In this document: positions 3,968-22,167 of the stretch, piece after piece
Layout of the letters: each line of letters opens with the position of its first letter
Numbering within the stretch: the stretch's first letter is position 1
Source of the DNA: Candidatus Parcubacteria bacterium
Lineage (GTDB): Bacteria > Patescibacteriota > Minisyncoccia > Phycocordibacterales > GCA-2747955
Length of the DNA: 24,000 bases
Direction of reading: 5' to 3'
NCBI GenBank assembly: GCA_027024305.1
Contig: JALVSO010000027.1
Location: 1,959-25,958 of the forward strand
The notes under the pieces: generated by a model
What the model was told of the DNA's origin: nothing
The model's input: only the letters and a program-made list of their open reading frames with translations
Databases searched by the model: none
Program-made: the position numbers and the translations under genes

Positions 3968-4040
3968 ACTTTCATTATACTGCTTTTTAACAATATGACC
4001 AAATCATTTAATCTAAAAAAATTAGAAAACCAATCGTACT

Positions 4041-4070: not shown

Positions 4071-4103
4071 GGTTTATATCTTTTTTACTGTTAAAATGGG
4101 AAA

Positions 4104-5858: not shown

Positions 5859-5882
5859 AATATCTTAGAAAATTAAAATATT

Positions 5883-5918
5883 ACACAAATGTCCGTACGG
5901 ACATTTGTGTGATTTTTT
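5883..5918 (+). terminator. intrinsic terminator after the helicase gene
   Basis: Perfect 28-nt palindrome ACACAAATGTCCGT/ACGGACATTTGTGT (5883-5910) followed by a T-run at 5913-5918. Confidence 0.75.
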
Positions 5919-6005
5919 AGAGGGGGGTTTAGAAAAGAGAAAAAGAAAAGAGAAAAGGAGAAGGTAAGGGGATGATAAGATGAGGGCGCGACAAGATGAA
6001 AGATT

Positions 6006-6034
6006 GGGGCGCGACCTTCGGTCGCGCCCCTTTT
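6006..6034 (+). terminator. GC-rich UUCG-loop hairpin plus T-run (terminator-like)
   Basis: GGGGCGCGACC-ttcg-GGTCGCGCCCC followed by TTTT. The core GCGACC-N3/4-GGTCGC recurs at 8857-8891 and 11202-11224. It sits just upstream of a TATAAT (6049-6054) preceding the next gene. Confidence 0.55.
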
Positions 6035-6063
6035 CAAAATATTTTTGCTATAATAAAGGCAAT

Positions 6064-8850
6064 ATGAGTGAATGACCACCGAGAAAAAATGAAAAAAAGG
6101 AAAGCCCACCCAATCCATACAAGTTTATTCCTGTTGTGCCGGGAAAGGGTTTCGTGGGCGATGATGTTTCAAATTCCAGGGAAACTGAGAGTATTCGCCA
6201 AATGGAGAAAGAGTATCTCGGACCGGAAGAGGATAGTTATGAATTCCGAATGGAAGAATATGCTGAGACGGGCGACCCCTCTGTTTTAAAAATAGAAGAT
6301 GTTAGAAGGACACCAGATGTTTTTGGATATGATGTGGTTTCTAATGTGCCCGGAGCGACAGAAAGTGATTTGGCGGAAGCTAGAGAGGTCGATGAAAAAT
6401 TTAGAAAAGAGATGGAAAGACAGGAACTTGACGATTATGCGGTCAGTGGAACAGAAGCTCTTTTTGCTAATCCTGATAATTTCGAAGAAAATTTATTTTC
6501 TTGAATAGATGGGACTCCCTACGAACAACTAAGAAAAGAACATGATATTTTTGAATTTAATATTTTATTTGATAAGTTGATGAAAAAAAGGGTTGGTGAA
6601 GATCCAAACGATAGGAGTATTTCAAGAGGCTATTCTCAAGAAAGGAAAAAATTTGCTTTAAACTTTATAAATTTTTGTAGGAAAAAATTTGAAGGTGATG
6701 AAAGCCCTGAAAAAGAAGAATATAATGATTTTATAAGTAAAGCATCTTTTGTTCTGACCGGAGTGGCACCGGGAGTTTTTGATTATATTGGTGGTGTTGA
6801 TGATAATTTGTTGGTCGTTTCAGAGATGCAATCGGTGCCCGGCATGAAAGTTTTTTATCAGGATAAAATGAATTCGTTAGTTTATGATTTAGAATTTTCC
6901 GATATTGATTTTTTAAGAAGGGCTTTTGAAAATAAAACAATTTTACAAAAAGCCAATATTATTAATTTGTTTCCTGAAATCATTGCTTTTGCTACTTCAA
7001 GTGGATATGCAGATAGTATTTATGAAAAGGTATTGAAAGTCTTGGATGAACAAATGGGACAAAATGTTCTGTTTGATAACCTGATATGGCAAAAAAGACT
7101 GGAAATTATTCAAATGGTTCGGGCGGAAATGCCAATAGATTCAAATGTAAGATCTTTTTCTTTCAGAAGAGATAAATTGTTAAGAGAGTTAGTAAATTTA
7201 CCGAATAAGTACAAAGACTATGAGGTTTTCTATATGGCTCGTAATCTGCTTGGCTTGAAAGATGTTTATGGAAAGGTAAGATATGCTGTTGAAGTTGATG
7301 GTGGAAAAGTGGAGAAAATGAGAATCCCCAGGGATAGGTTAGTTTATCAAAATATCTTAATGGCCCAAAAACAATCATATAATCAAAAAGAAATACTTAG
7401 GTATTTAGACGGAGAATATTATGGGGATTTAAGTCTCAGAGAAAAATGAAGGAGGGAGGTTGAAAGTGGTTATTTTATTTCCCCCGGGGGCTGGGAAGAA
7501 AACAACATTAAAGAAAGTTTAAATGTGTCGGAAGATGAAATTAAAAATATTTCAGAATATGTTAGCGGGGAAAATGCCAGAGACTTTCTTGACTTGTTTT
7601 ATGAACACACTCAACGAGATGCTTTGGAGCACGCTCTTTACGATGACCTTTCTCGTTTGTCTGTTCAGAGTCAAGAGCGTTTGTTGGATTATATGATTTC
7701 AGATCGAAGCCCCGATTCATTTTCCAGAATTAAGAAGTTTTCCAGGGGGTTGGATAATGAAAGGGAGAGAGATAATTTTTTGCAATCATTCCTTTCCCTG
7801 GCCCAGGGCGGTGAAGAAATGGGAGAAAAAATTTTAGCCATTGCCGAGGCTTATCCGAAAGAAGAAGCTTCCGCCATCTTCACCAAGTATGCGGAACTGG
7901 TTGATGCGACTGATAGGGTGGAGGAGTCTTTGAAAAAGGAGTTTCCCGGTGCTGATTTGGAAATGGTCAGAGAGATAGCTCAAAGACTTCTTTTAAAGGG
8001 AAAAAAGTTGCTGGATGAATTTTCGTCTCAAAAAGATATGAATGGGTCAGAACTGGTTAAACAGTTGGAAAAGTTGAGAGCTGAAAATATTTTATTGGTA
8101 GAAAAATATAAACTTCTGCGAGAGGCGGGAGTGGTTGAAAATATAGCCGATTTGGAATCGGTTAAAACGGAAAACCTGTCGGGGGCCGATGCTTTGAGAA
8201 ACGATAAACTAATGTCGTTCTTTAATGAGAGTTATAGGGATAATTACACTTCCTATTCGGAAGAGGGATTAAAATCTCTTTTGGAAAAGTTAAGAAAAAA
8301 TCTTTCAGCTGATAATTCAGAGGTTTATTATATGTCTTCCGGAGATAAAATTTTGTCGGCCATCCTATTGAATAAAAAAGAAGAAGAAAGAGAGGCTTAT
8401 TTAAGCGCTTTAAATGTAGATCCAACTTTAAAGGAAACTGCTGCCGGCAGGGTTTTGTTAGAGGAAGTGATGGGTCAATTGTTGGAAAGGGGATGAGCTT
8501 TAACGGCCGAAGCTTCTCCCGATAATGCTGTCCACTATATAAATTTATTTGATTTTGTGGGTTATGAAAGAGTGGAAGATTCTGATGAAGATTATATTTT
8601 AAAAATAAAAAGAGACGATACTACCTATGAGAGTAAAGATAAGAAAAAATATTCCAAAAAGAAAATCAGAGAGATGGTGGAGGGCAAGATTGCCGAAGAT
8701 GGAAAGATTGCCATTTGAATGACTCTTGATAGTAAAGAAACTCCGCCCCAGCTGGAAAAAGGTTATGTTATCACTCAGATGTTTAGAGGAAAGCTTGATG
8801 ATGTGCCAGGAAACTATTTTCTTTTGGAAAGGATTGATGAAAATAGGTAG
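6064..8850 (+). CDS. large hypothetical protein (928 aa if TGA is sense)
   Basis: ATG at 6064. One frame joins tracked ORFs 6136-6504, 6577-7449 and 7525-8496 and continues to TAG at 8848-8850, across TGA at 6073, 6502, 7447, 8494 and 8716. There are no in-frame TAA/TAG in the joining segments (checked by hand). I recognise no family. The C-terminal ~120 aa (SALNVDPTLKETAAGRVLLEEVMGQLLERG.ALTAEASPDNAVHYINLFDFVGYE) is faintly GNAT-like. Confidence 0.7.
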
Positions 8851-8856
8851 GTTTTA

Positions 8857-8891
8857 GAAAATGAGCGCGACCTGCGGTCGCGCTCATTTTC
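8857..8891. terminator. bidirectional intrinsic terminator between convergent genes
   Basis: GAAAATGAGCGCGACC-tgc-GGTCGCGCTCATTTTC. The A/T runs on both sides allow it to function on either strand. Confidence 0.8.
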
Positions 8892-9652
8892 TAACTTAAA
8901 CTTTCCCAAAGGGCTTCAAAAAGAAAACGATTTAATTTATAGATGTCTGGATCAGATATGATACTGGAAGTTAAACTTTTATTTTTAAAGGTTATATAGG
9001 CTACTTTTTGATTATAGATTTGATTAACCGCATAGAAATTTTTAATTTCGCCCCTTGGGGCTATTTTTATTTCCGTTAATTTGTTATTTTTGTTTTTTTC
9101 TAAGTATTTTCTGGCTTCCGGACTATCTATCATAATAATTTTCTTTTTGATTTTCTTTTTGATTCTTTCTTGAACATAGAGTTGGTCAATATCAGCTATT
9201 TCTTTTTCCAGGGTTTGGCTATCTACAATGGTGTAAATGATTTCGTCTTTAACCGATAGAGTTTCTTCTAAAACTTTCCTAACTCCTTCTTCGCCTTCAA
9301 AAAATTGCACTCCGGGTTTTCCGGCCGTCAGGTTGTATTGGGAAGTCAGGGCGTCAATGGTTGCTCCCAGCTCTTTTTGAGCTCTTTTAATTTCCGCTTC
9401 TTTCTTGAAAAGTAATTCTTCCAATTTGGAAGGGTGGGCCGGCAGAAACAGACCGGCGGAGCCGCTTTTTTTCTCTTTTTCTACCAATCCCAATTCCATT
9501 AATTCATCCAGAACCTTATAGGTTAGCTGTCTGGAAAGACCAACTTCCTTGGCAAGTTCTGAGCCTTTTTTCTTACCCCCCGATATCAAAAGGGAATATA
9601 TTTCAGCTTGGTTTTTACCCAGCCCAATTTCTTGTAATTTTTTATCAAACAT
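8891..9652 (-). CDS. TrmB-family HTH transcriptional regulator (253 aa)
   Basis: Intact ORF. The N-terminus LQEIGLGKNQAEIYSLLISGGKKKGSELAKEVGLSRQLTYKVLDELMELGLVEK fits the TrmB-type winged-helix pattern. TAG stop, no in-frame TGA. Confidence 0.7.
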   Translation of the reverse strand: MFDKKLQEIGLGKNQAEIYSLLISGGKKKGSELAKEVGLSRQLTYKVLDELMELGLVEKEKKSGSAGLFLPAHPSKLEELLFKKEAEIKRAQKELGATIDALTSQYNLTAGKPGVQFFEGEEGVRKVLEETLSVKDEIIYTIVDSQTLEKEIADIDQLYVQERIKKKIKKKIIMIDSPEARKYLEKNKNNKLTEIKIAPRGEIKNFYAVNQIYNQKVAYITFKNKSLTSSIISDPDIYKLNRFLFEALWESLS

Positions 9653-9748: not shown

Positions 9749-10129
9749 ATGAAAGATTTTGATTCTTGAAATGATATAAAGAAGAAAACCGAAGATGAGA
9801 AATTTCGATTTTATAAGGTTAGGGAGGTCTGGTGATGTCGTTTCGGTCTTAATATTGGTACGGAGATGAATGGTAAAGGTGAATGATTTGTACGTCCCGT
9901 TGTTGTCTTAAAAAGTTTTGGGAAGAATGCTTGTTTGGTGGTTCCTTTAACGACATCAGAAAAAGAGCACGATATGAGAATAGATATTGGTCTCATTGAT
10001 GGGAAAAAAGCAAAAGCCAATATATCCCAGATAAGGGTAGTGGATACGAAGAGATTTGAAGAAAAAATATCTTTTTTATCAAAAACCGAGTTTTCCAAAT
10101 TAAAAAAAATCGTTAAAGAATTATTTTAA
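9749..10129 (+). CDS. MazF/PemK-family toxin-like protein (126 aa if TGA is sense)
   Basis: ATG at 9749 is in frame with tracked ORF 9935-10129, across TGA at 9767, 9833 and 9884. Sequence ...FYKVREVW[TGA]CRFGLNIGTEMNGKGE[TGA]FVRPVVVLKSF...LVVPLTTS...ANISQIRVVDTKRF matches the PemK-like pattern (EIWW..G.N.G.E..GK...RPVLVL...PLTS...QIR.ID..R). TAA stop. Confidence 0.8.
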
Positions 10130-10498: not shown

Positions 10499-10527
10499 TT
10501 GACAAATAAATCAAAATAGTATATAAT
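10499..10527 (+). promoter_or_regulatory. consensus sigma70 promoter (TTGACA, 17 nt, TATAAT)
   Basis: TTGACA at 10499-10504 and TATAAT at 10522-10527, exactly 17 nt apart, inside a 900-bp AT-rich ORF-free region. Confidence 0.6.
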
Positions 10528-10533
10528 GCGGTC

Positions 10534-10700
10534 AGATTTTGAAAGATTGGGAAAAATTATGAAGGAGAGAGCATAATTTTTCTGAGAAAAGGAAAGGCTT
10601 TGAGAGACAAATCCAAAAATGGATTTATCTCACAAGGTCTTTGTTGACCGACCTCGGTCAGTGAAGAAAGCACTCTCTCCACGGGAGTGCTTTCTTTTTC
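10534..10700 (+). ncRNA. candidate ~165-nt small RNA (consensus promoter to intrinsic terminator)
   Basis: Bounded by the promoter above and the terminator GAAAGCACTC-9 nt-GAGTGCTTTC plus T5 (10666-10699). It contains a perfect 11-bp hairpin GAAAAATTATG-aaggagagag-CATAATTTTTC with an SD-like loop. No credible ORF. Family not recognised. Confidence 0.4.
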
Positions 10701-10736
10701 CCAGAAAAATTATACTTCGGAAATTTCTCAATCTTT

Positions 10737-10846
10737 CATCGGTCTTTAAATAACATATTAATTTATGTTCCATGTAGTCAGGTGGGTAGGTTAATACGGG
10801 TCTTGGAACAGGACTGCGGAACGCTCCACCCTTCGGTTCAACCGAT
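10737..10846 (+). ncRNA. possible ~110-nt structured element closed by CATCGGT/ACCGATG
   Basis: Long-range complementarity 10737-10743/10840-10846. Internal pairings include G-U wobbles (GTAGTC/GACTGC, GGTGG/CCACC). The only ORF here is an implausible minus-strand one (10630-10851). Confidence 0.25.
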
Positions 10847-10864
10847 GACAAGGGCTACAAACCG

Positions 10865-10933
10865 TTTTGTAAAGAAACGGCTGGAATTAAAAAGTCTAAC
10901 CAACTTTTTAATTCCGGAAATTTCTTTACAAAA
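10865..10933. repeat. long two-tier inverted repeat (69 nt hairpin)
   Basis: TTTTGTAAAGAAA..CTGGAATTAAAAAGT-ctaacca-ACTTTTTAATTCCGG..TTTCTTTACAAAA. That is 13 + 15 bp of pairing with one G-U. Confidence 0.6.
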
Positions 10934-10982
10934 TTTGTAAAGAAAAATTCGTTTCTTTGACAAAGGTTTTAAAAAATACTTC

Positions 10983-11012
10983 TTAACTGAAATATTTTTT
11001 AAACAATATAAT
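10983..11012 (+). promoter_or_regulatory. putative promoter at the AT-rich/GC-rich transition (TTAACT, 18 nt, TATAAT)
   Basis: TATAAT at 11007-11012 and TTAACT at 10983-10988. It would start transcription ~11020, reading into the structured region and the hammerhead. Confidence 0.4.
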
Positions 11013-11019
11013 GTCAAAA

Positions 11020-11563
11020 TTTGTTAAAGATCCCCGGAAAAGAAGCCGGACTTGTCAGGTATGGTTCGGCGTGTGGTTGCTGACAAGTCCGGCTTCGTGA
11101 AAACTCCGGTCAGATCTTTGGCGGATTTTTGGAAAAAATATGGATTGCTTCCCTCCACATCCGTTCCTCTCGCAATGACGACCACCGGAGGTGGTCGTTG
11201 GGACGGCGACCTGCGGTCGCCGTCATTACGAGGAGCTCGCGACGAAGTAATCCATGCAGACATTCGTCACCGTTATGTATTTTTCAAGATACCCGGTTTG
11301 TCGGCAATCACACGCCTAACCATACCCAACAAACCGGGTATCAATTTTTTCCAAAAATCCGCCCCAGGGTGGAAACAAAATGGAGGCGATGACACTGCCA
11401 TTTTTGAAGCTAAACAAAAGGTTTTAGATTCAAAAATGGCAGTGGGGCTCGTAGAGAGCGGGGCTACCCCGGCGAGGTAAACAAACTCGTCCTTGGTGAA
11501 ATTCCAAACATTGCCTTCAAATACAGAGAAGTTCAGCGTGGTTCGTTGAGCTTCTCTGCCGTC
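11020..11563 (+). ncRNA. candidate ~540-nt highly structured RNA ending at the hammerhead cleavage site
   Basis: No plausible ORF (the tracked ORFs here are Arg/Pro-rich shadows). Perfect 17-bp hairpin at 11042-11058/11080-11096. 19-bp long-range helix GGCGGATTTTTGGAAAAAA (11120-11138) / TTTTTTCCAAAAATCCGCC (11345-11363) enclosing hairpins at 11178-11198 and 11202-11224. 14-bp hairpin GATACCCGGTTTGT/ACAAACCGGGTATC. 16-bp hairpin CACTGCCATTTTTGAA/TTCAAAAATGGCAGTG. Confidence 0.45.
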
Positions 11564-11609
11564 CCGGAGTGTGCGCTCCGGCTGATGAGTCCAAAAGGAC
11601 GAAACGGTA
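11557..11609 (+). ncRNA. type III hammerhead self-cleaving ribozyme
   Basis: UGCCGUC|CCGGAG-ugugcg-CUCCGG-CUGAUGA-GUCC-aaaa-GGAC-GAAA-CGGUA. The full catalytic core is present (CUGAUGA, GAAA, GUC cleavage triplet). Stem I is 6 bp with a closed loop and stem II is 4 bp with G10.1-C11.1. Stem III is open and 6 bp (ACGGUA/UGCCGU, one G-U). Predicted cleavage is between 11563 and 11564. Confidence 0.85.
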
Positions 11610-11810
11610 AAATTGTCACGGTATGACTGCGGGATAACGAGGAAGCGACGCGGAATGACGCTGAAAAGTCCACCCTGACAAAAATAACGAAGTCCGACTT
11701 CGTTGCCTGTTCCGAAGCGAGATTTTAGCGATAAATTCTTGTCGCTAAAATCTCGCTCTTCGGAGCGAAAAGGTTCCGGCGTGTATTCGCCGGGTAAATT
11801 TAACTGAAAA

Positions 11811-11881
11811 TCACCGAGGCAAATATCCCCTATAAGCTGAAGATTATCCTTCAGTGAAATGGGGAGAATAAGCCGAGGTGA
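11811..11881 (+). promoter_or_regulatory. three-tier stem-loop in the 5' UTR immediately upstream of the RBS of the next gene
   Basis: TCACC..GGC / GCC..GGTGA, TCCCC/GGGGA and CTGAAG-attatc-CTTCAG are nested. It ends 6-14 nt before the AGGAGAG RBS and ATG 11895, and it covers the alternative ATG at 11859. Confidence 0.4.
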
Positions 11882-11894
11882 TCAGGAGAGAAAG

Positions 11895-12272
11895 ATGGCC
11901 AAGGTCATCCGTATCTCCCGCCACCCGCTGGGTGGTGATCGGGAGGCGGCTCTCAAGGCCGCCTTCGGCGATGACGTGGAAATCGTCACCGTCGATGTTC
12001 CCTATGGGGACGACCCCGTTGCCACCGTCGGTCAGCTGATTGACCGGGAAGGGGATGTCGTGGCCGTTGAGGCCCAGGCGCCCTTTCCGGTGACCATGAA
12101 GCTGGTCGACGCGAACCGGAAGCTGGGTGTTAAGTTCGTCCGCGCCGAATTCAAGCGCGGTGCGGATGGACGGGCTGTTGTCGTTGGTCAAGACGACAAT
12201 GGTCGCGACATCCTGGCTTTCGATCGCTACGTGGAGTTGCGTCGTATCGTTATTGATACGGCGGAGCTCTAA
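11895..12272 (+). CDS. hypothetical protein (125 aa)
   Basis: ATG 11895 is preceded by CAGGAGAG. The tracked ORF starts at 11859, but that ATG lies inside the stem-loop without an RBS. Protein-like composition (MAKVIRISRHPLGGDREAALKAAFGDDVEIVTVDVPYGDDP...). TAA stop. Family not recognised. Confidence 0.65.
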   Translation: MAKVIRISRHPLGGDREAALKAAFGDDVEIVTVDVPYGDDPVATVGQLIDREGDVVAVEAQAPFPVTMKLVDANRKLGVKFVRAEFKRGADGRAVVVGQDDNGRDILAFDRYVELRRIVIDTAEL

Positions 12273-13430
12273 CGGGCGACCGGCCGGGTGGCGGCGGTAC
12301 CGGCAACGTCAAGCCGGGCGTGCAGCTATGCGCGGTGGTAACGGTGAGCAACGGCTCATCATTCCGAAAGCCGATAATGGCAAATAGTGGGGATTCCGCT
12401 CCCCTTGTAGCGGGATTGACTGGAGGAGGATAATCCGATGGACAATTAGTAGCGCCGAGTCCTGGCGCCATAACAGAAATGAGGACAGCCAAAAGTGAGT
12501 GGTTTCACTTTTGGTGACCCCGGGAGGAGGGCGGCTCCTCTCAGTCGTGCACTATGCACGCAACCGTCCGAGGCGGTTCCTCGGCATGGCCTTAGGGAGG
12601 ACCTATGGCTATTTAAAAAGGCGCCTGGAGACAGGGGCGCCCGATAAATACCACTCCCTCGGGGGCAGGACGAGTTCCGGGAGAAGGGGTGAGAAGTTGC
12701 TAGCCCCGGGATATGAGACCTGCCATCATATTCCGAAATCGAAGCAACTATTGGTTGACTCCCGAGCGTGGTTTGTTCGGGGGCTTTATTGAGTCGGTAA
12801 TTTTAGATTATCGGCTCATAGAGCAAGAGGGGGGGTTGCCTTTCTCCTCCCATTCAGTTTCAAGAAGTACGGATAACTTCTTGAACCTCCGGGTCGTGCT
12901 CGGAGTTTGAATAAAAATCGGTCGGCAAAGGATTGCCGACCGGTTAGAATGACTCGGAGAAGCTTAGTTGGTCGGGCTTCTCTTAAAAAAAGTTACCATG
13001 GGGCTTAATGGCTCCATGGTAACCGGACCAACCCTCCACATTGGAGGAAAATAGGGTGTTGTTTCCTTCACCCTCCCAATTCTGAGAGTCAAGGACTACT
13101 CTCAGGATCTTCGCAAGGCGGAGTTTGGGAAAGTTTTCCATAAAAGGAATTTATGGAAGACAAAGGAAACTCGGGCCCTTATAACCGGAGGGCCTTAAAG
13201 GTAGCCCCCGCCTTGGTTAGGCGGGGGTTAGGTTGCTCCCCCGAGATGGATTTCGGGGGCTTTATTGGGCAGATCTGTTTTACAGGTCTGTCCATAGAGA
13301 ATTGAACAAACTCTTTCACCTGACTTTCTCTTCTGCAAAGAAAGTCATTGAAGGGTGGAAGGGGTTAAATTTTAATAGGGCTCAGGCCCCTCCGCCGCGC
13401 TTTTTTCATGGGCGCGGAGCAGACGGAGCA
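12273..13430 (+). ncRNA. ~1.15-kb ORF-free, hairpin-dense region (candidate large structured RNA or array of small RNAs)
   Basis: At least 9 perfect 7-10-bp hairpins: 12489-12514, 12860-12884, 12919-12942, 12992-13023, 13082-13105, 13205-13227, 13238-13259, ~13321-13347. Two are terminator-like units ending ...TTCGGGGGCTTTATTG (12758-12795, 13238-13269). The tracked ORFs here have non-protein-like composition. Strand is assumed from the neighbouring genes. Confidence 0.4.
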
Positions 13431-13447
13431 CCTTAAGGAGGTGAAAC

Positions 13448-13687
13448 ATGAATGAAGACAAAAAAAAAGAGGTGGAGTGGGTCTTGGCCAACTTCACCAA
13501 GGAGGAGGTCCTCGGGGAAATCGAGGATCTGGAAAGGCGAATCCCACTTGAGTGGGAGGACGCTAATGATGCATATTCCGAGCCCTGTGCGGGCGCGGAA
13601 TCGAACTATTATTCAATAGTTCGAGGAATCGACGAAATGGAGGAGCGCCTGGAAGCGTTCCGGGAAGCATATAGGCTCCTCCAGTAG
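13448..13687 (+). CDS. small acidic hypothetical protein (79 aa)
   Basis: Strong RBS AAGGAGGTGA 7 nt upstream of the ATG. TAG stop, followed by an intrinsic terminator. Confidence 0.65.
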   Translation: MNEDKKKEVEWVLANFTKEEVLGEIEDLERRIPLEWEDANDAYSEPCAGAESNYYSIVRGIDEMEERLEAFREAYRLLQ

Positions 13688-13708
13688 ATTTAGATTCCTG
13701 TGCACATT

Positions 13709-13757
13709 TCCCGAGCGGTGGTGTTGTAGTGACATTACCCGCTCGGGACTTTTTTTG
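13709..13757 (+). terminator. intrinsic terminator, CCGAGCGG-hairpin family copy 1
   Basis: TCCCGAGCGG...CCGCTCGGGA 10-bp stem with an inner GTA/TAC helix, followed by CTTTTTTT. It is near-identical to 18115-18160. Confidence 0.8.
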
Positions 13758-13782
13758 AAAATTCAAAAATTTGAATTTTCAA
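13755..13782. promoter_or_regulatory. perfect 13-bp inverted repeat TTGAAAATTCAAA-aa-TTTGAATTTTCAA (operator-like)
   Basis: Exact palindrome read directly. It lies between the terminator and the module-end repeat. Confidence 0.4.
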
Positions 13783-13802
13783 AGAAGGGATTTCCGGGGA
13801 AC

Positions 13803-13875
13803 AAATCTTTTGCAACGTTTTTGAACGTCCCAGGGACGTACCGGAATTTGGATTTGAATCTGCCTAGAGTTTTTT
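13803..13875 (+). repeat. module-end repeat, copy A1 (short version)
   Basis: AAATCTT...TGAACGTCCCAGGGACGTACCGGAATTTGGATTTGAATCTGCCTAGAGTTTTTT. It shares the ACGTCCCAGGGACGT palindrome and the GATTTGAATCTGCYTAGAG+T-run tail with 22168-22320 and 23826-23978. GC content drops immediately after it. Confidence 0.75.
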
Positions 13876-13896
13876 AGAAATTTAAAAAAGAAAATT

Positions 13897-14088
13897 ATGA
13901 AAGAAATTATATTTATAACATCCATCATTTCAGGTCTCCTGATATTTTTTATCTTTATTTTCTCTTTGGATTTGGATGCCGGAATTATGGCTATTTTGGC
14001 AGCCTTTTTTGGTTCGGCCTATAACCGGTTATATCTTTTTCTAAATCATTTATTTAGAGAAAAACATCCGGAGAAAAGTGAGTTTTAA
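13897..14088 (+). CDS. possible small two-TM membrane protein (63 aa) in an AT-rich patch
   Basis: Intact ORF with hydrophobic segments (IIFITSIISGLLIFFIFIF, IMAILAAFFG). Weak RBS. Its AT-rich composition is unlike the flanking GC-rich blocks. Confidence 0.4.
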   Translation: MKEIIFITSIISGLLIFFIFIFSLDLDAGIMAILAAFFGSAYNRLYLFLNHLFREKHPEKSEF

Positions 14089-14126
14089 AATGTCTTTTGA
14101 AATGAAAACAGCTAGTCTTGCATTTT

Positions 14127-14174
14127 CCGAGCGGTATTTTGTTGACAAAACTTTGCCGACAAAATACCGCTCGG
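14127..14174. repeat. 16-bp perfect hairpin of the CCGAGCGG family (no T-run)
   Basis: CCGAGCGGTATTTTGT-16 nt-ACAAAATACCGCTCGG. Its outer arms are the same as the two terminators at 13709 and 18115. Confidence 0.6.
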
Positions 14175-14345
14175 GAGAGTGGTGAATTGGCTTTTGCAGA
14201 GCCCATCTTTAGTCTGAAAGCATAGCTGCAAAGAATATGCTTTCTGGGTGATCCGCGACCAACAAGACTGCGGGGAGTGCTAGGTTCTGAACTTCCAACA
14301 ATAGGAAGGAATGAAGCGCTCAAGCTCAAAATTCGGAGGTGAATA

Positions 14346-15458
14346 ATGAGCAAAAAAAACATTGCGGAGCTGGCTCCGCAAAAAAATGTGGCGGAAAAGA
14401 TTTCTCAGGCTCTGTCTGAGAATTTTATCCGCTCCGAGAGAGTTGCCCGTATTCTCGCCCTTGCGGTGGAATCGGGCAAAAATGTATTACTTTGGGGGCC
14501 GGGCGGACACGGCAAGTCCGAGATGGTGGAGCTTGCGCTCGCGCAAGTCGCCGACTCGGACGACGTGTTCGTCCAATCCTTTGGCGAGGGCATGGATGAG
14601 GCAACCCTTTGGGGTGGCCTTGATTTCCAGGCCCTCGAGTCGGAAAAGGTGCTTCGGTATTTTCCGGAGCAAAGCTTCCTTGCGAAGCCTTTTGCCGTCT
14701 TTGAGGAGATCTTTGACGCCCCGGCGTCGGTTCTCCTCGCCCTGAAGGATACCCTGACGGCGCGCAAGCTCCGCAAGGGTGGTCAACAATTTCCTATGGA
14801 AACCAAAGTGATCATCGCGATCACCAACAAGGATCCGGAGGAAATTTCTGACCTCGGCCCCGCCGCAGCTGCTCTGGTGGAGCGGTTCCCGCTCCAGCTC
14901 AATGTAGATTGGGACTCCTATGAGGCCCGGGACTACACCGAGCTGTTTGATAAGGTCGGATCTCGGCTCCCGGGGGCGGATCTCAACGGCACCCAGCGGG
15001 TGCTGGCGGAGATTATCGCCAAGGCTTCGGCCGATGGCGATATTATTTCACCCCGCACCGCGGTTCACGCCCTCGGCGTGGTCAAGACCGCGGCGGCCCT
15101 GCGAGGCTCAGACCGGGTGGAGAAGGAGGACCTGGTGGACCTCCAGTACCTGCCCGGCATGGAGGACCTGGCGGATAATATCCGTCAGGAGTTGGACGCC
15201 GCCTACGAGCGGGCCGAGGCAGAGCGCCGGCTGGTTGCGGCCGAGGATCGGTTGCGTGAACTGTTGGCGGAGCTCCACGACGCAACGACGCCAATCAAGG
15301 CACTCCAAGTTGCTCGCCGCCTGCAGTCTCTGCAGGACGACACCAGCAACCTGAAAGTGCCGGACGGTCTCACCGACCGGCGCAAAAACCTGCGCAACTC
15401 TATCAGCGAGAAGGTGCAAGCGGCGCAGGAGCTTGCCCTTCAAAACACCCGCATCTAG
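14346..15458 (+). CDS. MoxR/CobS-like AAA+ ATPase (370 aa)
   Basis: RBS GGAGGTGA. Walker A LLWGPGGHGKSE, Walker B-like AVFEEIFDA, and sensor-like IIAITNKD and ISPRTAV. C-terminal coiled-coil-like tail. TAG stop. Confidence 0.8.
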   Translation: MSKKNIAELAPQKNVAEKISQALSENFIRSERVARILALAVESGKNVLLWGPGGHGKSEMVELALAQVADSDDVFVQSFGEGMDEATLWGGLDFQALESEKVLRYFPEQSFLAKPFAVFEEIFDAPASVLLALKDTLTARKLRKGGQQFPMETKVIIAITNKDPEEISDLGPAAAALVERFPLQLNVDWDSYEARDYTELFDKVGSRLPGADLNGTQRVLAEIIAKASADGDIISPRTAVHALGVVKTAAALRGSDRVEKEDLVDLQYLPGMEDLADNIRQELDAAYERAEAERRLVAAEDRLRELLAELHDATTPIKALQVARRLQSLQDDTSNLKVPDGLTDRRKNLRNSISEKVQAAQELALQNTRI

Positions 15459-15473
15459 CGGGAGGAGGAAAAA

Positions 15474-16850
15474 ATGAACTTTACGTTCAGAACAACTCCT
15501 CCCGCTACCTATATCCCTCCGAACTCGGAGGAGATGCGGGAGGTCGCGGCTAAGGTCGGGCTGAAGGGATTCAGCCGCGACCTGGTCGCGGACCTGTGTA
15601 ACCTGGCGGCGGGGGGAGCAATCCAACCCCCGTCGGCGTATCGGGAAATCGTACACCGGCAGGTGGAGGAAAAGCTCCCTGCCCCCGATAGCGATGGCGA
15701 GTGGTCGGTTGGAGGTGGCTACACCAAAGACCGTCTGCAAGCTATCAATCACCGCCTGGAAAAAGCGATGAGATACCATCAGAATGTCTGCGATTTCTTG
15801 CAGACGGTGGACCTCAGCGCCTTTCCCGGCCGAAGCCCCCTTGAGCAGGCCATGAGCTTGCTCAAGCTGCTTTCCAAGCAGGAGGGTGGCTCCGGCGGCG
15901 GTGAGGGGGGCGAGCCCCTGCCCATCTTCCAGGACAATGATCGTCCGGAAGGTGTCGCCGAAAAACTCCATGAGACCATGGAGTTGGCGGAGTCGCTGGA
16001 CGAGACCGAGCAGGAGATGCTCGATCCGGATGGTGACTGGCAGGAGGATGCCGAGCAGGATGGACAGGAAACCGGCTCCTCGGGGCTTCAAGCCCTGAAG
16101 GTTGCCGAGGACCTGGTCGACGGGAGTGACAAGCGCGCCATGCTTGAGATTTCCCGTCAGCTTGACCAGTTTACCAAGCTGCAAGTGCGGCGACAAAAAC
16201 TGGTCAAGCCAGATCCTACCGGCGACGAAATCCGAACCCGGGGCATCAAGCATCTTGGAGAACTCGGCAGAGTCTCCAAAAGTGCTTGGGCCACCCGCCA
16301 ACAACAGCCGACGTACTTTTTGTACCAGGCTGTGACCGGTCAGCTCCCCGTTCGGGAGCGGGTGACCCGCCAGGAGAAGAAACAGGCGATCTTCATCCTG
16401 GTTGACGGCTCCGGGTCTATGGAGGGCCGCAAACACCACAAGGCCACGGGGGTGGTGATGAACCGCCTCAAGGCAGTGGTGGACGGCGACGCGGAGGTTT
16501 GGGTTTCGGTCTTTGACACCGAAATGTCCAATCCAATGCATGCCGGAAATGCGGAGGAGGCCCGGGAACTGATCAAACAGTTCCGTCATGGCAACTTCCG
16601 CGGCGGCGGCACCGACATCGCCAGCGCGGTGAAAGCCGCGCACGCCTTCATTGAGGAAAAGATGAAGGCGGGCGAGGCGCTTTGGAGACCGGAAGTGGTA
16701 GTCCTCACTGATGAGGACAGCTCCACGCAAGGTCTCCGCAAGTCTGAGGTCAAGGGCACTCGTGTCCACGGATTTGCAATCGAGCGCAAAAACAAGCCGC
16801 TGGTGACTTTTGCCAAGTCAACCGGCGGCGTGGGGATTGAAAACTTTTAG
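15474..16850 (+). CDS. von Willebrand factor A (vWA/MIDAS) domain protein (458 aa)
   Basis: RBS GGAGGAGG. It starts 15 nt after the AAA+ gene. C-terminal vWA domain with the MIDAS motif ILVDGSGSM plus GGGTDI and VVVLTDED. Acidic linker. TAG stop. Confidence 0.8.
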   Translation: MNFTFRTTPPATYIPPNSEEMREVAAKVGLKGFSRDLVADLCNLAAGGAIQPPSAYREIVHRQVEEKLPAPDSDGEWSVGGGYTKDRLQAINHRLEKAMRYHQNVCDFLQTVDLSAFPGRSPLEQAMSLLKLLSKQEGGSGGGEGGEPLPIFQDNDRPEGVAEKLHETMELAESLDETEQEMLDPDGDWQEDAEQDGQETGSSGLQALKVAEDLVDGSDKRAMLEISRQLDQFTKLQVRRQKLVKPDPTGDEIRTRGIKHLGELGRVSKSAWATRQQQPTYFLYQAVTGQLPVRERVTRQEKKQAIFILVDGSGSMEGRKHHKATGVVMNRLKAVVDGDAEVWVSVFDTEMSNPMHAGNAEEARELIKQFRHGNFRGGGTDIASAVKAAHAFIEEKMKAGEALWRPEVVVLTDEDSSTQGLRKSEVKGTRVHGFAIERKNKPLVTFAKSTGGVGIENF

Positions 16851-16874
16851 TTGAATATCCTCTGGTTATTTTCT

Positions 16875-16920
16875 GTGAAACTTGGCTTGGTGTGGTGCCA
16901 AGTCAAGTTTCACTTCTTTA
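16875..16920 (+). terminator. probable terminator after the vWA gene
   Basis: GTGAAACTTGGCTTGG-tgtggtg-CCAAGTCAAGTTTCAC (16 bp, one G-U) followed by the U-rich TTCTTTAT. Confidence 0.55.
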
Positions 16921-16970
16921 TCAAGCATCCAAAATGGTTTGGGTGCTTGTAGAGAAAAGGAGGTGAAAAA

Positions 16971-17012
16971 ATGAAAAATCGGGATCCTCCGATGATGCCC
17001 GAACTCGGCTAG
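16971..17012 (+). CDS. possible 13-codon micro-ORF (MKNRDPPMMPELG) with a very strong RBS
   Basis: AAGGAGGTGA lies 6 nt upstream of the ATG and the ORF ends in TAG. It sits at the start of a 0.7-kb non-coding region. It could be a leader peptide or coincidental. Confidence 0.25.
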   Translation: MKNRDPPMMPELG

Positions 17013-17564
17013 GGCTAAAACACTCTGAGGCCGACGGTTGGGCCGAGACACCGTTGGGGCGATGTTCCTGCCGATGGAGCCCGTTTCAGTATATTTCAAG
17101 ACCGGAGAGCTGCTGACTCTTTGATGGCTTGGGATATGGTAAAGCTGAATGGCCGGGTGATGCCGGTAAAACAAACATCAACACGAAGCAATGGTTAGAG
17201 AACATCCAGCCAAGTGTATTGCCCGTGCAAAAAACGGGTGTATAAAAATCTCAACTCCGGTTTTCCCGGGGCGGCATGGTGTCGTAGATACGCAATGCGG
17301 CACTTAACCTCTTACTAACGGAGGATGGTTATGCGTATAAGGGACCCCCCTTAGGTTTTGGTCATTTTCATTCTAATAATTATTGGAGTGGAAATGACCT
17401 TGGATAGAGGAAGTGCTTGGTAGTGCTTCCTCTCTACTTTTGGGAATATAACTTTTAGGAGTTGTATTTCCAAGGAGTGGATTTTTCTCTTTTAGTGAAG
17501 CGGGATAGAGAGCCTGAAGTTTTTTGGGTTTTGTCTTCCGTTTCACTAATTTAGGGAGGGTAGT

Positions 17565-18107
17565 ATGGAATTTTTTTCTAAGGATGGAGGTGTTGTTGTT
17601 GTGCCGTGGGGCACACAGCAACACCTCCGCGCTCACCCGGACGTCTTGGATGTCCTGGGTGAGGCAATTTCAAAAATTGAACTCCCCACGGATGGGGAGT
17701 TTCTGAAAACGACCGTTGATCTGGGAAGGGTTATCGGTCGTTCCGGGGCGGTGGAGACCGACCCGATTCAATACGACGAGCAGACCTGGTTTGCCCATCG
17801 TATTGGGCGGGACGGACCTTCACGTGTTGTTTTGGACACGGAAGGTCCGGAGGTTTCCACCGTTGCGATCCTGGCGTTCCAAGCCAGGGATCGCAGCACC
17901 GGGAAAATCCAGCCGGGCAAGTACATCCTTGCTACGGCATGGATCGGCTCGGCGGAGGCCGAGCGAGAGCCCTGGGACAAGGGCATAAAAACAGAGCGGG
18001 AGCGCCAAGCCGCACTGCGGTATTGGTGCTCCCATGCTCTGGTCTATGACAAGGAGGTCATGGACAAGCCCTTCCAATCTTCATGGAAGGAGATTTTGGA
18101 AGGGTGA
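17565..18107 (+). CDS. hypothetical protein (180 aa)
   Basis: RBS GGGAGGG. Globular-looking composition. Apparent TGA stop followed by an intrinsic terminator. Family not recognised; the N-terminal HLRAHPD is only a weak hint of a nuclease-type His motif. Confidence 0.65.
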   Translation: MEFFSKDGGVVVVPWGTQQHLRAHPDVLDVLGEAISKIELPTDGEFLKTTVDLGRVIGRSGAVETDPIQYDEQTWFAHRIGRDGPSRVVLDTEGPEVSTVAILAFQARDRSTGKIQPGKYILATAWIGSAEAEREPWDKGIKTERERQAALRYWCSHALVYDKEVMDKPFQSSWKEILEG

Positions 18108-18114
18108 ATCTTTT

Positions 18115-18160
18115 TCCCGAGCGGTGGTGTTGTGGTGACATCACACGCTCGGGACTTTTA
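18115..18160 (+). terminator. intrinsic terminator, CCGAGCGG-hairpin family copy 2
   Basis: TCCCGAGCGG...CGCTCGGGA followed by CTTTTATT. The inner helix GTG/CAC covaries with GTA/TAC in copy 1. Confidence 0.75.
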
Positions 18161-18206
18161 TTGTGCCGGTAACTTTCCAAGTTACGGGCACATAGAAGTT
18201 TTTCAT

Positions 18207-18324
18207 TTTTTTTCACGGACTCCCTTGTCCGTTCAATTGTGCCGGTGATGAACCGGAAGTCCTACGGGGCGCGAACAGACAAGGGGCTTGCCGAAAGGTG
18301 AGTGTTCTGTTCGTGGAGAGAGAA
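18207..18324 (+). promoter_or_regulatory. structured 5' leader, copy 1 of 2
   Basis: ~95% identical to 19042-19159. It contains ACGGAC-tccctt-GTCCGT, CCGG-tgatgaa-CCGG, and GAACAGA...[CUUGCC-GAAA-GGUGAG]...UCUGUUC, then the GGAGAGAG RBS. Confidence 0.6.
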
Positions 18325-19041
18325 ATGAAGGCGTTGGAAAAAATCAACATCGCCGCGCCGTTTGTTTTCGCTGCAGTGGAGTCGATTACCCTGATAGAGC
18401 CCTCTATTTGGAGGGCGAATGCCGACATCCGTTTTTATATGGATATCTGGTATTCGATTTGGGTGGTCAGTGTTGGGATGCAATACGCTCCGAAATGGGC
18501 GATTGCATTTCTTACATGGTCTCTATTGCCACCGCTCCTCGGTGTGTACGAGGGGGCGAGGTACGAAAACGCATCCGATGCATTTTTGCGCCTTGATGCG
18601 TTGATTTGCGTAGGGTTTTTGCTCTACGAAATAGCAATCATAGAGGTTGCCCATCACCACTTTGAAAAAGTTTTTGGATGGCTCCTGCCGTCCAAATATG
18701 AGGTGGTGGAGCGCATCGGTGTATCATGGATGATCCGGTGTTACAAGGAGTTGTATCGCCAAATGGCGCGATGGTGGAAGGTTGGAGGAAATCATGGATT
18801 GATGATTCTTTGCGCCTTAAGTTTTGCCAAATTCTTTGGTAACTCGGGACAAAAAAGAGGGAATTTGCTTCTCCACGAGATTGAGACCAGTGAAGTCTCA
18901 GTTCGTATCGCCGACAATGGAGATATAGTTTTGTCGGCAAGCAAGCGGACCCTAGACGTCGCAACCATTGCGATACGAAAGGCGGAGGAAGGCGGATTAA
19001 GCGCCGCCGTTGAATTCCTCCATTCGCACGCGGAAGTTTGA
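18325..19041 (+). CDS. hypothetical membrane protein (238 aa)
   Basis: ATG 18325 follows the GGAGAGAG RBS; the tracked start at 18298 lies inside the repeated leader. Several hydrophobic, Trp-rich segments. Apparent TGA stop at 19039-19041. Confidence 0.65.
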   Translation: MKALEKINIAAPFVFAAVESITLIEPSIWRANADIRFYMDIWYSIWVVSVGMQYAPKWAIAFLTWSLLPPLLGVYEGARYENASDAFLRLDALICVGFLLYEIAIIEVAHHHFEKVFGWLLPSKYEVVERIGVSWMIRCYKELYRQMARWWKVGGNHGLMILCALSFAKFFGNSGQKRGNLLLHEIETSEVSVRIADNGDIVLSASKRTLDVATIAIRKAEEGGLSAAVEFLHSHAEV

Positions 19042-19159
19042 TTTTTTTCACGGACTCCCTTGTCCGTTCAGCTTTGCTGGTGATGAGCCGGAAGTCCTGC
19101 GGGGCGCGAACAGACAAGGGGCTTGCCGAAAGGTGAGTGTTCTGTTCGTGGAGAGAGAA
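19042..19159 (+). promoter_or_regulatory. structured 5' leader, copy 2 of 2
   Basis: It starts immediately after the preceding stop codon. About 6 substitutions relative to copy 1, including CCGG>CTGG, which keeps pairing as G-U. Confidence 0.6.
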
Positions 19160-22100
19160 ATGAGCAACAAAAAGTTGCCGGTCGCGGAGTTCCGCGAGCA
19201 AATCGTTTCAACCGTTGCCTCTAATCCGGTAACGGTCATTACAGCTGAGACCGGCGCGGGCAAGTCCACGCAGGTGCCTCAGTACCTGCTGGACGAGGGT
19301 TACAACATCGTTGTGACCCAACCCCGGCGGTTGGCTGCTCGGACTGTTGCCGAGCGCGTGGCCGAGGAATACGGTTGCGAGTTTGGCGATATCGTTGGCT
19401 TCCGCACCGCCCATGACCGCCAGGACAGCGACAACACCCGTTGTCTTTTTGTCACGGATGGTCTGGCGCTGGTGCGTGAGCTTATGGGTGCCGGCACCCA
19501 CGACTGCCTGATTCTTGATGAGGTTCACGAGTGGAACCTCAATATTGAGGTACTCGTGGCGTGGGTGAAGAAGCAGGTCGCCCGGAATCCCAAATTCAAA
19601 GTGGTGCTGATGAGTGCCACTTTGGAGGCGGAGAAGTTGGCGAGCTTCTTTGGCGGTGCGCCCATCATTGAGGTGCCGGGACGTACCTTCCCCGTGGAGG
19701 AGCGCAAAGTCGGTGAAAGCCTGCACGACGACATTGTTGAGCTTGCTCGGCAGGGTCGAAATGTGCTGGTTTTCCAGCCCGGCAAGGCAGAAATTGAGGA
19801 AACCGTCAGGTACCTTGAAAATCTGCCGGACCTGGACGCCAGGGTTTTGCCGCTTCACGGTGGCTTGACCAAGGAGCAGCAGGCGGCGTGCTTCAAAAAC
19901 TATCACCAACCGAAGATTGTCGTCAGCACCAATGTCGCGCAGACATCGGTGACCATTGATGACATTATTGCGGTTGTTGATTCCGGGATGGAGCGCCGGG
20001 TGGAGCTGGTGGACGGGGTTGAGGGCTTGTACCTGCGCCCCATTTCACTGGCCGATGCCAAGCAGCGCCGGGGGCGTGCCGGCAGGACCAAGCCGGGGAT
20101 TTATATCGATCACTGCCCGGCCAAGCCGGAAGATCGGCGTGAGTTCCCGATGGCGGAAATCCTGCGGGTGCGCCTGGACCAAACCGTTCTCCGTTTGGCT
20201 ATGGCTGGCTTTGATATGGAGGAGCTTCGGTTCTTCCATCAGCCCAATATTGCTGAAATCCATGAGGCCAAGCGTGCTCTGCATGCTCTGGGTTGCATGG
20301 ATGAGAACGGGAAGGTTACGGAGGTTGGTCGCGCTGTTTCCCGTTTGCCGGTCTCCGTTCAGTATGGGCGGATGATTGTGGAAGCGGAGAAGCTCGGGGT
20401 TGTGGGCGATGTTATCAAGATCGCCGCAATTCTGGAGCAGGACGGCATCACCGCCCGCAAGGTCAAATTGGATGACCGCTGGGTGGAGGCTAAGCCTCTG
20501 TGGCTGCCGCTGACCAACGGGGAGAAGGAGTCGGACGCTCTGGCTCAGCTCAATGTGTATGAAAATGCACAGAGCATGAGCAAGTCCCAGATGTATGAGT
20601 CTGGGGTCTTCGTGAAGGACTTTTATTTCGCGAAGGAGCGAGTTCGCCTCCTGAAAAAAGCGCTGGAAAGGAGGGTTCGTCATATGGACTCAACCGGAAA
20701 GCGCGAGGACATTCTCCGGGCGGTTCTTGCCGGGATGGTGGATCACTTGTATAAGTATAATTACGGTGATTACCAAAACGGCGATGGGGTCAACCGCCGG
20801 ATCAACAAGGATTCCGTTGTATCTGGTGGCGACTGGATTGTCGGTAAACCCTTTGACCTGGAAATCAACGGTCGTTACGGACCGTTCACCATTAATTTGG
20901 TGACCATGGTCACAAAGGCGGACCCGATGATTCTGGCGGAAGTGGCACCCCAGCTGGTGACCATTGAAGCCGGTCTTTCTCCGCGATACAGTGTCGATCG
21001 AGGGTGTGTGGTATCTACCACAAAAACGCTCTTCAACGGCATGGTTATCAAGGAGGAGGAGGTTGATGACATCAACCATCCCGAAGCGTCGGCCATCCTG
21101 GATGAGCAGGCATGGAAGGAGTGGAAAGGTCCGGAGATTCTGGTTCCCGATTTCAGTTTGGCGGGTGAACTGCCGGCTGAAATTCCGGAAATCCGCGAGG
21201 AGGTCTATATCAAGTCGCGGGTGGATGGTCGTCCACTTTCTGCCTATGGGGTCGTTTATCATGACTCCTGGTCTGGTTGGAAAAGTAAGTGGACGCGGGA
21301 CCGGAAGGAGGCCGAAAGTCTCCACGAGCAAGCCGAGAAGAAGCTTGCCGAACTCCGGAAACAAAAAGCCGTCCGCGACTGTATTGAGCGCGAGCTTGAT
21401 GCGGTCAACCGTCGCCGGGAGGCGATCGGTTTGTCTCCGATTAAAATGCGGGATTCCGGTTTTTCTCACAACGGTTGGTCGCGAGACTATACCGAGGAGA
21501 AGTGGGAGAAGGTATTGCAGGAGACGGCGGATAAGGAAGCCGAGGCGGCTGCTGAGCGGGCCCGGGCCGAGAAGGAAGCCAAGGAGGCACGCCTCATTGA
21601 GGAAGGTGCCTTTACCGGTTTCACCGGGGTCTGGTGCCGTCGTAGTGGCTCCAACCAGGGTGATGGCTGGGTCATTCGTCCGGGCGGTTCTTTTCGGGAG
21701 CACGACTCCATTGATAACCCTCGTCCGCGTTACAAGAGTGAAGGGTATAAGTCGTGGAATGTTGTGCGCCCGGATGAACTGGCCATTTCCTGGCGGAAGC
21801 ATACCCGGGCCTCCGAACACGAGTTCGAAGTTGCTCATCTGCCGGAGTCTTTGACTGCCGAGCAGGTGAAGGCGATGGAGACTCTGCTGGAAGAACTGGA
21901 GGAGGCTTGGGACGGCGCCACCGGCCTGGCTTCGGGCAAGAAGAGCCCGAGCGTTGGTGAGGGTTGGGTTAACCCTGAGACGGGCGAAAGTCTGACCAAG
22001 GGGTTCCGGACCTCTCGTCAAAAGCGGGAGGGTTCCGAGGCTAGCTGGACCGGAAAGGCCGGAGGGGTTGAAGAGGAGACCAACTCCGTTGTTTATGAGA

Positions 22101-22162: not shown

Positions 22163-22167
22163 GGGGT

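Follow-up and report, generated by a model that had tools for sequence, protein, structure and literature searches.

Several described systems use intergenic hairpins of the transcribed strand to punctuate or protect polycistronic RNA: phage T7 mRNAs carry RNase III processing hairpins between cistrons, and REP/BIME extragenic palindromes stabilise upstream mRNA. Intrinsic terminators place a GC-rich stem-loop and a U-rich tract shortly after a stop codon. In polycistronic transcripts of mobile elements and prophages, hammerhead ribozymes flank the genes (Perreault et al., 2011, PMC3088659). The element analyzed here is a gap between two small genes (12273-13447, 1175 nt) in a 24,000-nt stretch of DNA from a Candidatus Parcubacteria bacterium (the window, to which all positions refer), and it lies in a gene island that is GC-rich and strongly folded throughout (10500-24000). 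The gap is without a credible gene and is non-coding, densely folded RNA-type sequence. It is probably, with appreciable doubt, a transcribed, processed and terminator-punctuated non-coding spacer on the plus strand of this hyper-structured island.

Approximately 40 related loci were gathered using the 125-aa protein encoded upstream of the gap and the MoxR gene as queries; numbers beginning with L denote these separately fetched loci. The left edge of the gap is the TAA stop codon (12270-12272) of the 125-aa protein gene (11895-12272, plus strand), the true start of which, ATG 11895, lies within a 137-aa open reading frame (ORF). The right edge is the ATG at 13448 of a 79-aa orphan ORF (13448-13687, plus strand), preceded by AAGGAGGT at 13435-13442. 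The longest ORF within the gap under translation table 11 was 97 aa. Frames with TGA as a sense codon were also inspected, because the host part of the window is readable only in this way, and one frame of 162 codons was obtained (12388-12876). No Pfam match was found at E ≤ 1 in any of the six frames with stops masked, and the 97-aa ORF, the sole frame searched in that library, had 0 matches among 1.84 billion protein representatives. Tblastx of the gap against the related loci gave similarity at the two ends only, in all six frames there, and therefore reports nucleotide-level conservation. A tRNA/tmRNA scan found none, and BLASTN of the gap against phage and plasmid collections gave no match. 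A preliminary description of this DNA had given the gap exactly these limits as free of ORFs and had called the frames within it unlike protein, and both statements held; the six-frame search that it had proposed for a degraded gene returned nothing.

Perfect hairpins were counted as Watson-Crick stems of at least 7 bp with loops of 3-10 nt, and the expectation was taken from 200 dinucleotide shuffles. The gap contained 8 (0.69 expected, shuffle maximum 5), 7 of them with stems of at least 8 bp (0.14 expected), and a repeat search listed the same hairpin arms. With G.U pairs allowed, in a fold limited to pairs at most 120 nt apart, 34 hairpins covered 794 of the 1175 nt (68%). The minimum free energy (MFE) of the plus strand was −543 kcal/mol against −421.5 ± 8.7 kcal/mol for shuffled sequence (z = −13.9), and that of the minus strand was −450 kcal/mol (z = −10.5), leaving the plus strand 93 kcal/mol more stable. 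G.U pairs made up 42 of 301 pairs in the fold (14%). Both the stability excess and the G.U content make the structure RNA-like and place it on the plus (gene) strand. Pairs spanning at most 120 nt provided −510.8 of −543.7 kcal/mol (94%), so that the fold consists of independent hairpins in a row, with no multi-junction architecture. Outside two modules the hairpins share no sequence and do not form a repeated family of the REP/BIME type. The density of hairpins and their unrelated sequences, as put forward in the preliminary description, were therefore borne out, with only the two modules repeating within the gap.

The gap is a mosaic of six parts: a 3' element, a first hairpin train, module A, a second train, module B and a 5' leader, all on the plus strand. 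The structured 3' element of the 125-aa gene (12273-12370) consists of four hairpins followed by AUUCCGAAAG. It aligns with L027 1584-1675 at 75% identity, with 2 double and 6 single compensating changes and 0 broken pairs. L027 is the nearest locus (85% protein identity in the 125-aa protein); it aligns with window 11786-12370 and diverges beyond, ∼100 nt past the stop. The body of the first ORF-less unit (12371-12758) folds locally into ∼14 unrelated hairpins and had no DNA or protein homologue in the fetched loci or in the phage and plasmid collections. It is followed by module A (12759-12823), of which hairpin 1 (12759-12783) is a GC-rich, terminator-like stem of 10 pairs followed by CUUUAUUG, and hairpin 2 (12784-12823) comprises CUUUAU, a bulged U, a variable stem of 11-12 bp and AUAGAG. 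The body of the second unit (12824-13237) contains ∼12 unrelated hairpins, perfect at 12859-12885, 12919-12942, 13082-13105, 13136-13158 and 13205-13227 and near-perfect at 12992-13023, and had no homologue in the related loci. Module B (13238-13299) has a terminator-like site with 9 pairs as hairpin 1 (13238-13259) and a hairpin 2 (13260-13299) with the same base as in module A and an entirely different upper stem. Hairpin 1 of both modules was matched by the module descriptor.

Beyond module B, a hairpin followed by UUGAAGGGUGG (13321-13361) resembles by eye the elements of the form long hairpin + RAGAGUGG at window 14118-14180, L027 249-316 and L064 ∼85-130; the match between the L027 element and the one at window 14123 was also found by alignment. 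The 5' leader of the 79-aa gene (13362-13447) ends in a hairpin (13429-13443) that contains the Shine-Dalgarno sequence. The sequence 13362-13452 is 82% identical to L064 191-285, where the gene behind the leader copy is a different one, homologous to window 17565-18107. When window 13318-13450, which covers the 13321-13347 hairpin and the leader, was folded to a consensus with L064, 7 of 28 pairs were changed on both sides and still paired. The interior (12371-13361) had no detectable homologue in the related loci; conservation in relatives is confined to ∼100 nt at the start of the gap and ∼85 nt at its end. The collection of homologues and covariation analysis proposed in the preliminary description gave conserved ends with compensatory changes and no homologue of the interior.

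The module is built of a GC-rich hairpin 1 of variable sequence, CUUUAU, a bulged pyrimidine, an 11-bp stem of free sequence, a loop of 3-5 nt and RUAGAG, which pairs with CUUUAU at the base of hairpin 2. The 16-nt repeat TTCGGGGGCTTTATTG at 12776 and 13252 belongs to it. Further copies on the plus strand of the window are module E (13709-13787), which starts 22 nt past the 79-aa stop and has a hairpin 1 near-identical to that of module D; module C (16875-16954), which starts 25 nt past the VWA stop codon; and module D (18115-18198), which starts 8 nt past the stop of a 180-aa ORF. Module D scored 30.4 bits with model R2, which was built on two module copies, is too narrow and misses module C. 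Module F lies near 23445-23523. An expanded module, G1 (22171-22320, plus strand), was read by eye; it starts 9 nt past the helicase stop and is a ∼150-nt direct repeat with two GAACGUCCCAGGGACGUAC hairpins, repeated at 23826-23975 and partly at 13822-13875. The expanded-module repeats flank the DHH hydrolase gene (22532-23371). Regular-expression matches within island spacers all had both hairpins.

A module descriptor was searched against both strands of 282 kb of non-redundant loci and against dinucleotide-shuffled sets. It matched 14 copies on the gene strand and 0 on the other strand, with ∼0.15 per shuffled set. Covariation of hairpin 2 was measured over 13 copies, in which the loops were swapped for a fixed linker to hold the register, as MAFFT misplaced the indels of the variable stem. 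Pairing was 98%, a figure inflated by the pre-selection of the copies with a descriptor that demands pairing, which leaves the diversity of the stems unaffected. Compensatory change was present in 10 of the 17 pairs, and position 3 was U.G in 12 of the 13 copies. The module also follows the 125-aa homologue in L041, L044, L045, L050, L055 and L058; in L028, L035 and L036 a canonical hairpin and U-run terminator stands there instead. A terminator scan flagged modules A and B (9-10 pairs, 6 G-C, 5 T in 8). From the position of modules C, D, E and G1 8-25 nt past stop codons, the terminators of the relatives and this terminator-like flag, the module is taken as the gene-end signal of the island, and it occurs twice in the gap without a gene in front: module A begins 487 nt past the 125-aa stop and module B 415 nt past the end of A. 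The suggestion in the preliminary description that two units ending in the 16-nt repeat look like terminators agrees with the scan and with the placement of the module elsewhere. The module is absent from Rfam 15. Its 16-mer gave 25 matches in viral contigs, within the range that we expect by chance, with the rest of the module beside none of them. A CRISPR repeat or RNA anti-CRISPR mimic was considered for hairpin 2 and rejected, as the upper stems vary between copies.

Like an intrinsic terminator, the module has a GC-rich stem-loop followed directly by a U-rich tract, in copies C, D, E and G1 a few nt past stop codons, and homologous loci lacking it have canonical terminators at the same place. 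It differs in the U-tract (CUUUAU), which is both short and interrupted, in copies A and B, which no gene precedes, and in a second hairpin that always follows, uses the U-tract as its 5' strand and has a conserved base, bulge and U.G pair. Integron attC sites share with hairpin 2 a conserved stem base, an extrahelical base, a covarying variable upper stem and variable neighbouring cargo. However, the base of the module is CTTTAT/RTAGAG, without R''/R' cores (RYYYAAC / GTTRRRY) and without an integron integrase, hairpin 2 is ∼40 nt against 57-141 nt for attC, and its strand specificity depends on G.U pairs. The T7 RNase III hairpins and REP/BIME are alike in being transcribed-strand intergenic hairpins that punctuate or protect polycistronic RNA. 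REP elements, in contrast, are families of repeated sequence, whereas the gap hairpins are mutually unrelated, and the density here, 34 hairpins within 1.2 kb, and the reach into coding sequence far exceed those of either system. We know of no RNase III dependence of the gap hairpins.

Two further motifs were noted beside modules or gene ends. A second conserved RNA-like motif, AUGAGYGGGGA-hairpin-GCGAGACC, lies just past gene ends in related loci (L030 6315-6344, L038 7551-7592, L047 1749-1790, L054 5424-5465, L064 828-870, and L040 by eye); neither Rfam nor the gap contains it. After the VWA gene and module C there is a conserved mini-ORF with a strong ribosome-binding site (window 16971-17012, MKNRDPPMMPELG; L064 ∼3649-3693, MHIRDPPKKGVWRP), and the RDPP common to both copies recalls proline-rich ribosome-arrest peptides.

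A sigma-70-type promoter, TTGACA-17-TATAAT (10499-10527, plus strand), agrees with the consensus at 12/12 positions and lies in an AT-rich stretch just ahead of the rise in GC and structure; it is the probable start of the island transcript. A type III hammerhead (11554-11612, plus strand) lies 660 nt upstream of the gap, with predicted cleavage after C11563. It scored 45.7 bits (E = 3.5e-8) with Rfam RF00008, short of the gathering score of 48.5, which we attribute to a short stem II loop, and 75.8 bits with our own model R1. The invariant core is complete (CUGAUGA ... GAAA, cleavage-site H), and there are three helices, with stems I and II closed. Across 11 aligned homologues pairing was 95.5% and 14 of 16 pairs had compensatory changes, supporting all three helices. 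Twelve further gene-strand hammerheads were located in eight loci (L030, L040, L041, L042/L057, L046, L047, L058 and L065/L066); Rfam at E ≤ 0.01 on four related loci had missed hammerheads that were recovered by BLAST and our own model. In the window itself no second hammerhead or hammerhead-like core was found, and Rfam in E-value mode on four window slices gave only the hammerhead.

Three loci have paired hammerheads on one strand, 310-335 nt apart (L040 6616-7046, L042 6547-6972, L058 2554-2922). The unit between them is 97% identical between L040 (Paceibacterota) and L042 (Kaiserbacteria). Cleavage at both ribozymes would free a small RNA whose 5'-OH and cyclic-phosphate ends could be ligated, a possible precursor of circular RNA. 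ORF-less units bounded by ribozymes or modules occur in relatives, at L041 5016-5734 and as ∼335-nt units between hammerheads in L040, L042 and L058. As in the systems of PMC3088659, type III hammerheads stand on the gene strand around small variable genes, some of them anti-defence, and ribozyme pairs are present in related loci. Unlike in those systems, the hosts are Patescibacteria, the gap itself contains no ribozyme, and a second punctuation motif and island-wide folding coexist with the ribozymes. No report of hammerheads in Patescibacteria was found in a limited literature search.

Folding across the island was profiled as plus-strand MFE z-scores in 150-nt windows. The mean z was −0.6 for host genes, −5.4 for the leader (10530-11896), −3.8 for the gap, −3.9 for the MoxR and VWA coding regions and −7.3 for the 180-aa ORF. 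The whole island, coding sequence included, has a GC content of 50-65% against 35-48% in the flanks and z of −3 to −5, with sharp boundaries. A similar block surrounds MoxR-VWA in three other Patescibacteria genomes (L064 1-4200, L065 8400-13050, L067 3600-10200) and is weaker in L030, L040 and L041. In a four-genome MoxR-VWA alignment, 58% of double-substituted pairs stayed paired; the figure was 34-39% for most slid controls and 28-41% over all six. From this modest excess, part of the structure of the coding region appears to be selected. The leader 10530-11894 is as dense in hairpins as the gap (10 perfect hairpins, 0.9 expected). Long spacers filled with hairpins are the rule in this island, which weakens the premise of the preliminary description that a 1.2-kb gap is exceptional. 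Among the coding-free stretches of a locus that is folded throughout, the gap is the longest; it is not a special object set in a normal locus.

We propose the following sequence of events for a spacer of this kind. A long transcript would begin at the promoter 10499-10527 and would be cut by the hammerhead after C11563. Hairpin 1 of each module, with CUUUAU(U), would act as a leaky intrinsic terminator. In RNA that reads through, the U-rich tract would pair with RUAGAG to form hairpin 2 with its bulged pyrimidine and U.G pair, and hairpin 2 may serve as a recognition site for a protein or RNase, or as a processing or stability site. The last leader hairpin would occlude the ribosome-binding site and so gate the 79-aa gene. 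The gap would yield no protein; it would set the transcription that reaches the 79-aa, MoxR and VWA genes, and may release or end one or two structured RNAs of ∼450-550 nt.

The spacer reading builds on the anatomy of the gap, its strand, the lack of a coding signal, covariation in the module and the ends, modules placed after stop codons and the island-wide structure, all observed directly. Several points weigh against it. We infer transcription, transcript ends, termination, cleavage, processing and any function of the hairpin trains. Modules A and B, unlike the others, are not beside a stop codon; their U-tract (CUUUAUUG) is weaker than in canonical terminators, and hairpin 2 has no assigned partner. 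The pairing percentage of hairpin 2, though not its stem diversity, is raised by the choice of copies. The conservation of each end element comes from two sequences, the related loci number only ∼40, and the train bodies, being without homologue, may be neutral filler that owes its form to the same cause as the folding of the island at large.

In the chief alternative, the gap contains two or more non-coding RNA (ncRNA) genes, in units at ∼12371-12823 and 12824-13299 that are each ended by a module, with suggested roles in drawing off an RNA-targeting nuclease, as decoy or sponge, or in serving the island RNA helicase as substrate. We give this a low but real probability. Both units end in the gene-end module as protein genes do, units without an ORF and bounded by hammerheads or modules recur in relatives, one of them 97% identical in two differently named lineages, and the island carries genes linked to RNA and to cyclic oligoadenylates. 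However, neither module A nor the 3' element is followed by a promoter-like site (9/12 at the best internal position), and the bodies lack homologues, hence covariation, and are simple strings of hairpins without conserved junctions. The other alternatives were ranked below ncRNA genes because of the points that stand against each. One holds that each unit formerly contained a small ORF that has since been lost. In relatives, small genes do occupy the space from the 125-aa gene to the helicase or MoxR gene (a 182-aa ORF in L027, a 174-aa ORF in L064), each unit retains its gene-end module, and strong Shine-Dalgarno-like sequences followed by very short ORFs were seen by eye at ∼12420-12447 and 13041-13090; but no frame resembles Pfam or the related loci, the one frame compared with 1.84 billion representatives gave nothing, and the hairpins are as dense as in the clearly non-coding leader. 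Decayed cassettes are accordingly judged unlikely.

A role of the hairpins in DNA, with the modules as attC-like cassette recombination sites or as part of a single-stranded DNA stage of a mobile element, is very improbable. The cargo varies between related islands, in which modules and leaders recur in changed combinations, the DHH gene stands between 150-nt direct repeats, a tyrosine recombinase adjoins the 125-aa homologue in L028, and hairpin 2 has the attC design of conserved base, extrahelical base and variable top. No recombinase domain was found in any window ORF, however, and GTTRRRY/RYYYAAC cores were absent by eye; the conserved U.G pairs and the 14% G.U give the structure strand specificity and an RNA-like character, IMG/VR viral contigs lack the family, and the association with hammerheads points to RNA. 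Least probable of all, and close to being discounted, is one giant ornate RNA, of the same kind as GOLLD, ROOL or OLE, spanning the gap, with which the preliminary description had compared it in size, naming HEARO as well. Large ornate RNAs resemble the gap in length (0.6-1.2 kb), in strong predicted structure and in their setting in mobile-element-like DNA, and the z-score of −13.9 and plus-strand bias would suit one. Unlike the gap, they match a model and have a conserved multi-junction architecture. Cmscan of the whole window against Rfam, including the GOLLD, ROOL, OLE and HEARO models, gave 0 matches at gathering score, and at E ≤ 10 only unrelated low-score matches appeared in 12000-13900. 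No long-range multi-stem architecture is conserved across homologues, given the 94% local energy and the interior without homologue; the nearest relative has a different sequence after the shared 100 nt, terminator-like modules split the region, and neighbouring spacers and coding sequence fold equally strongly. Size and hairpins are thus insufficient as a criterion. The train of small RNAs that the preliminary description had held equally possible is closer to the evidence, as copies of the terminator-like module end both units, while the spacer remains our preferred reading.

More speculatively, the spacer may belong to an undescribed kind of GC-rich Patescibacteria locus, conserved and shared horizontally, in which an entire polycistronic RNA, coding and non-coding, is selected for dense local folding, cut by hammerheads and punctuated by modules, with functional trains and with the gap as its least constrained part; this is a tentative proposal that we regard as doubtful at present. 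If folding of the whole RNA were selected, the trains might protect it against RNA nucleases that are single-strand-specific or guide-dependent, or serve these as decoys. The upstream MazF/PemK-type toxin and type III CRISPR would be candidates, given the ring-nuclease-type and DHH genes in the islands, and translation would require the HrpA-like helicase of the island to unfold the RNA. The locus would then be a tractable case for why a whole operon would need double-strandedness, and may be connected, in hosts otherwise difficult to study, with defence or toxin systems that target RNA. Terminator-like punctuation and ribozyme-processed operons are known kinds; the two-hairpin gene-end motif, the covarying type III hammerheads of Patescibacteria and the sharply bounded hyper-folding of coding and non-coding sequence, in at least four independent genomes, are new, in that none was found described in Rfam or in a limited literature search.

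The 125-aa protein had no Pfam, PADLOC or NCBIfam match. Its family comprises 35 homologue clusters and was predicted by AlphaFold2 to have a Rossmann-like alpha/beta fold (pLDDT 94.3). A genome scan placed its hosts in Minisyncoccia, Saccharibacteria, Paceibacterota, Kaiserbacteria, Doudnabacteria and other Patescibacteria. The protein and the family alignment found nothing in the viral contigs of IMG/VR, and these empty scans give no evidence that the island is a known virus. The 79-aa protein matched only itself among 5.8 billion clusters, and an identical copy of its ORF is present on a second contig, L001. The island also encodes the MoxR-VWA pair, for which 447 homologues were listed, and an HrpA/HrpB-type DEAH helicase. 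The DHH hydrolase (22532-23371, plus strand) matches a PADLOC model associated with type III CRISPR (E = 2e-54), and cargo in relatives includes a STIV_B116-like gene (L027 477-791) and Csx3 (L030 6539-7483). The STIV_B116-like protein is of the viral ring-nuclease family. Together the DHH hydrolase, STIV_B116-like protein and Csx3 suggest a connection with cyclic-oligoadenylate signalling. Among the MoxR homologues, P0149 has a fused Cas_APE2256 domain.

A divergent TrmB-family regulator gene (8891-9652, minus strand) adjoins the island, as in L028, L065, L066 and L067, and this adjacency was found in four independent genomes; the TrmB-type protein is a candidate regulator of the island. Chimeric assembly was considered for the GC jump at ∼11 kb and rejected, since L028, L065 and L067 have the TrmB-spacer-island synteny as well. 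Directly upstream of the promoter lies an intact PemK/MazF-type toxin gene (∼9752-10129, plus strand; Pfam E = 1.2e-12, TGA read as Gly). MazF-type nucleases cut single-stranded RNA, and the adjacent toxin may bear on the strong folding of the island RNA. Host genes in the window (1-9650) can be read only if TGA is sense (code 4 or 25): pheT has 6 in-frame TGA codons, and the ORFs 2081-3199, 4095-5858 (RecD-like) and 5968-8850 have 4-8 each. The island genes (11000-24000) have 0, and TGA is the stop codon of three island ORFs (18105-18107, 19039-19041, 22160-22162). The island gives the appearance of standard-code DNA within a recoded host.

Some minor features of the island were also recorded. 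A conserved element of ∼100 nt, GGACUCCCUUGUCCG ... GGAAGUCCUACGGGGCGCGAAYAGACAAGGGGCUU, is present in two copies in the window (18209-18325, 19025-19155) and upstream of the helicase in L027 (2471-2606). The helicase probably starts near 19160 and not at 19010, judging from homology. Its C-terminal part (21605-21967) is homologous to a separate 515-aa protein beside the 125-aa homologue in other loci (L031 7741-8106; L051). A 63-aa ORF (13897-14088, plus strand) within the GC-rich island is AT-rich (31% GC) and encodes a strongly hydrophobic peptide.

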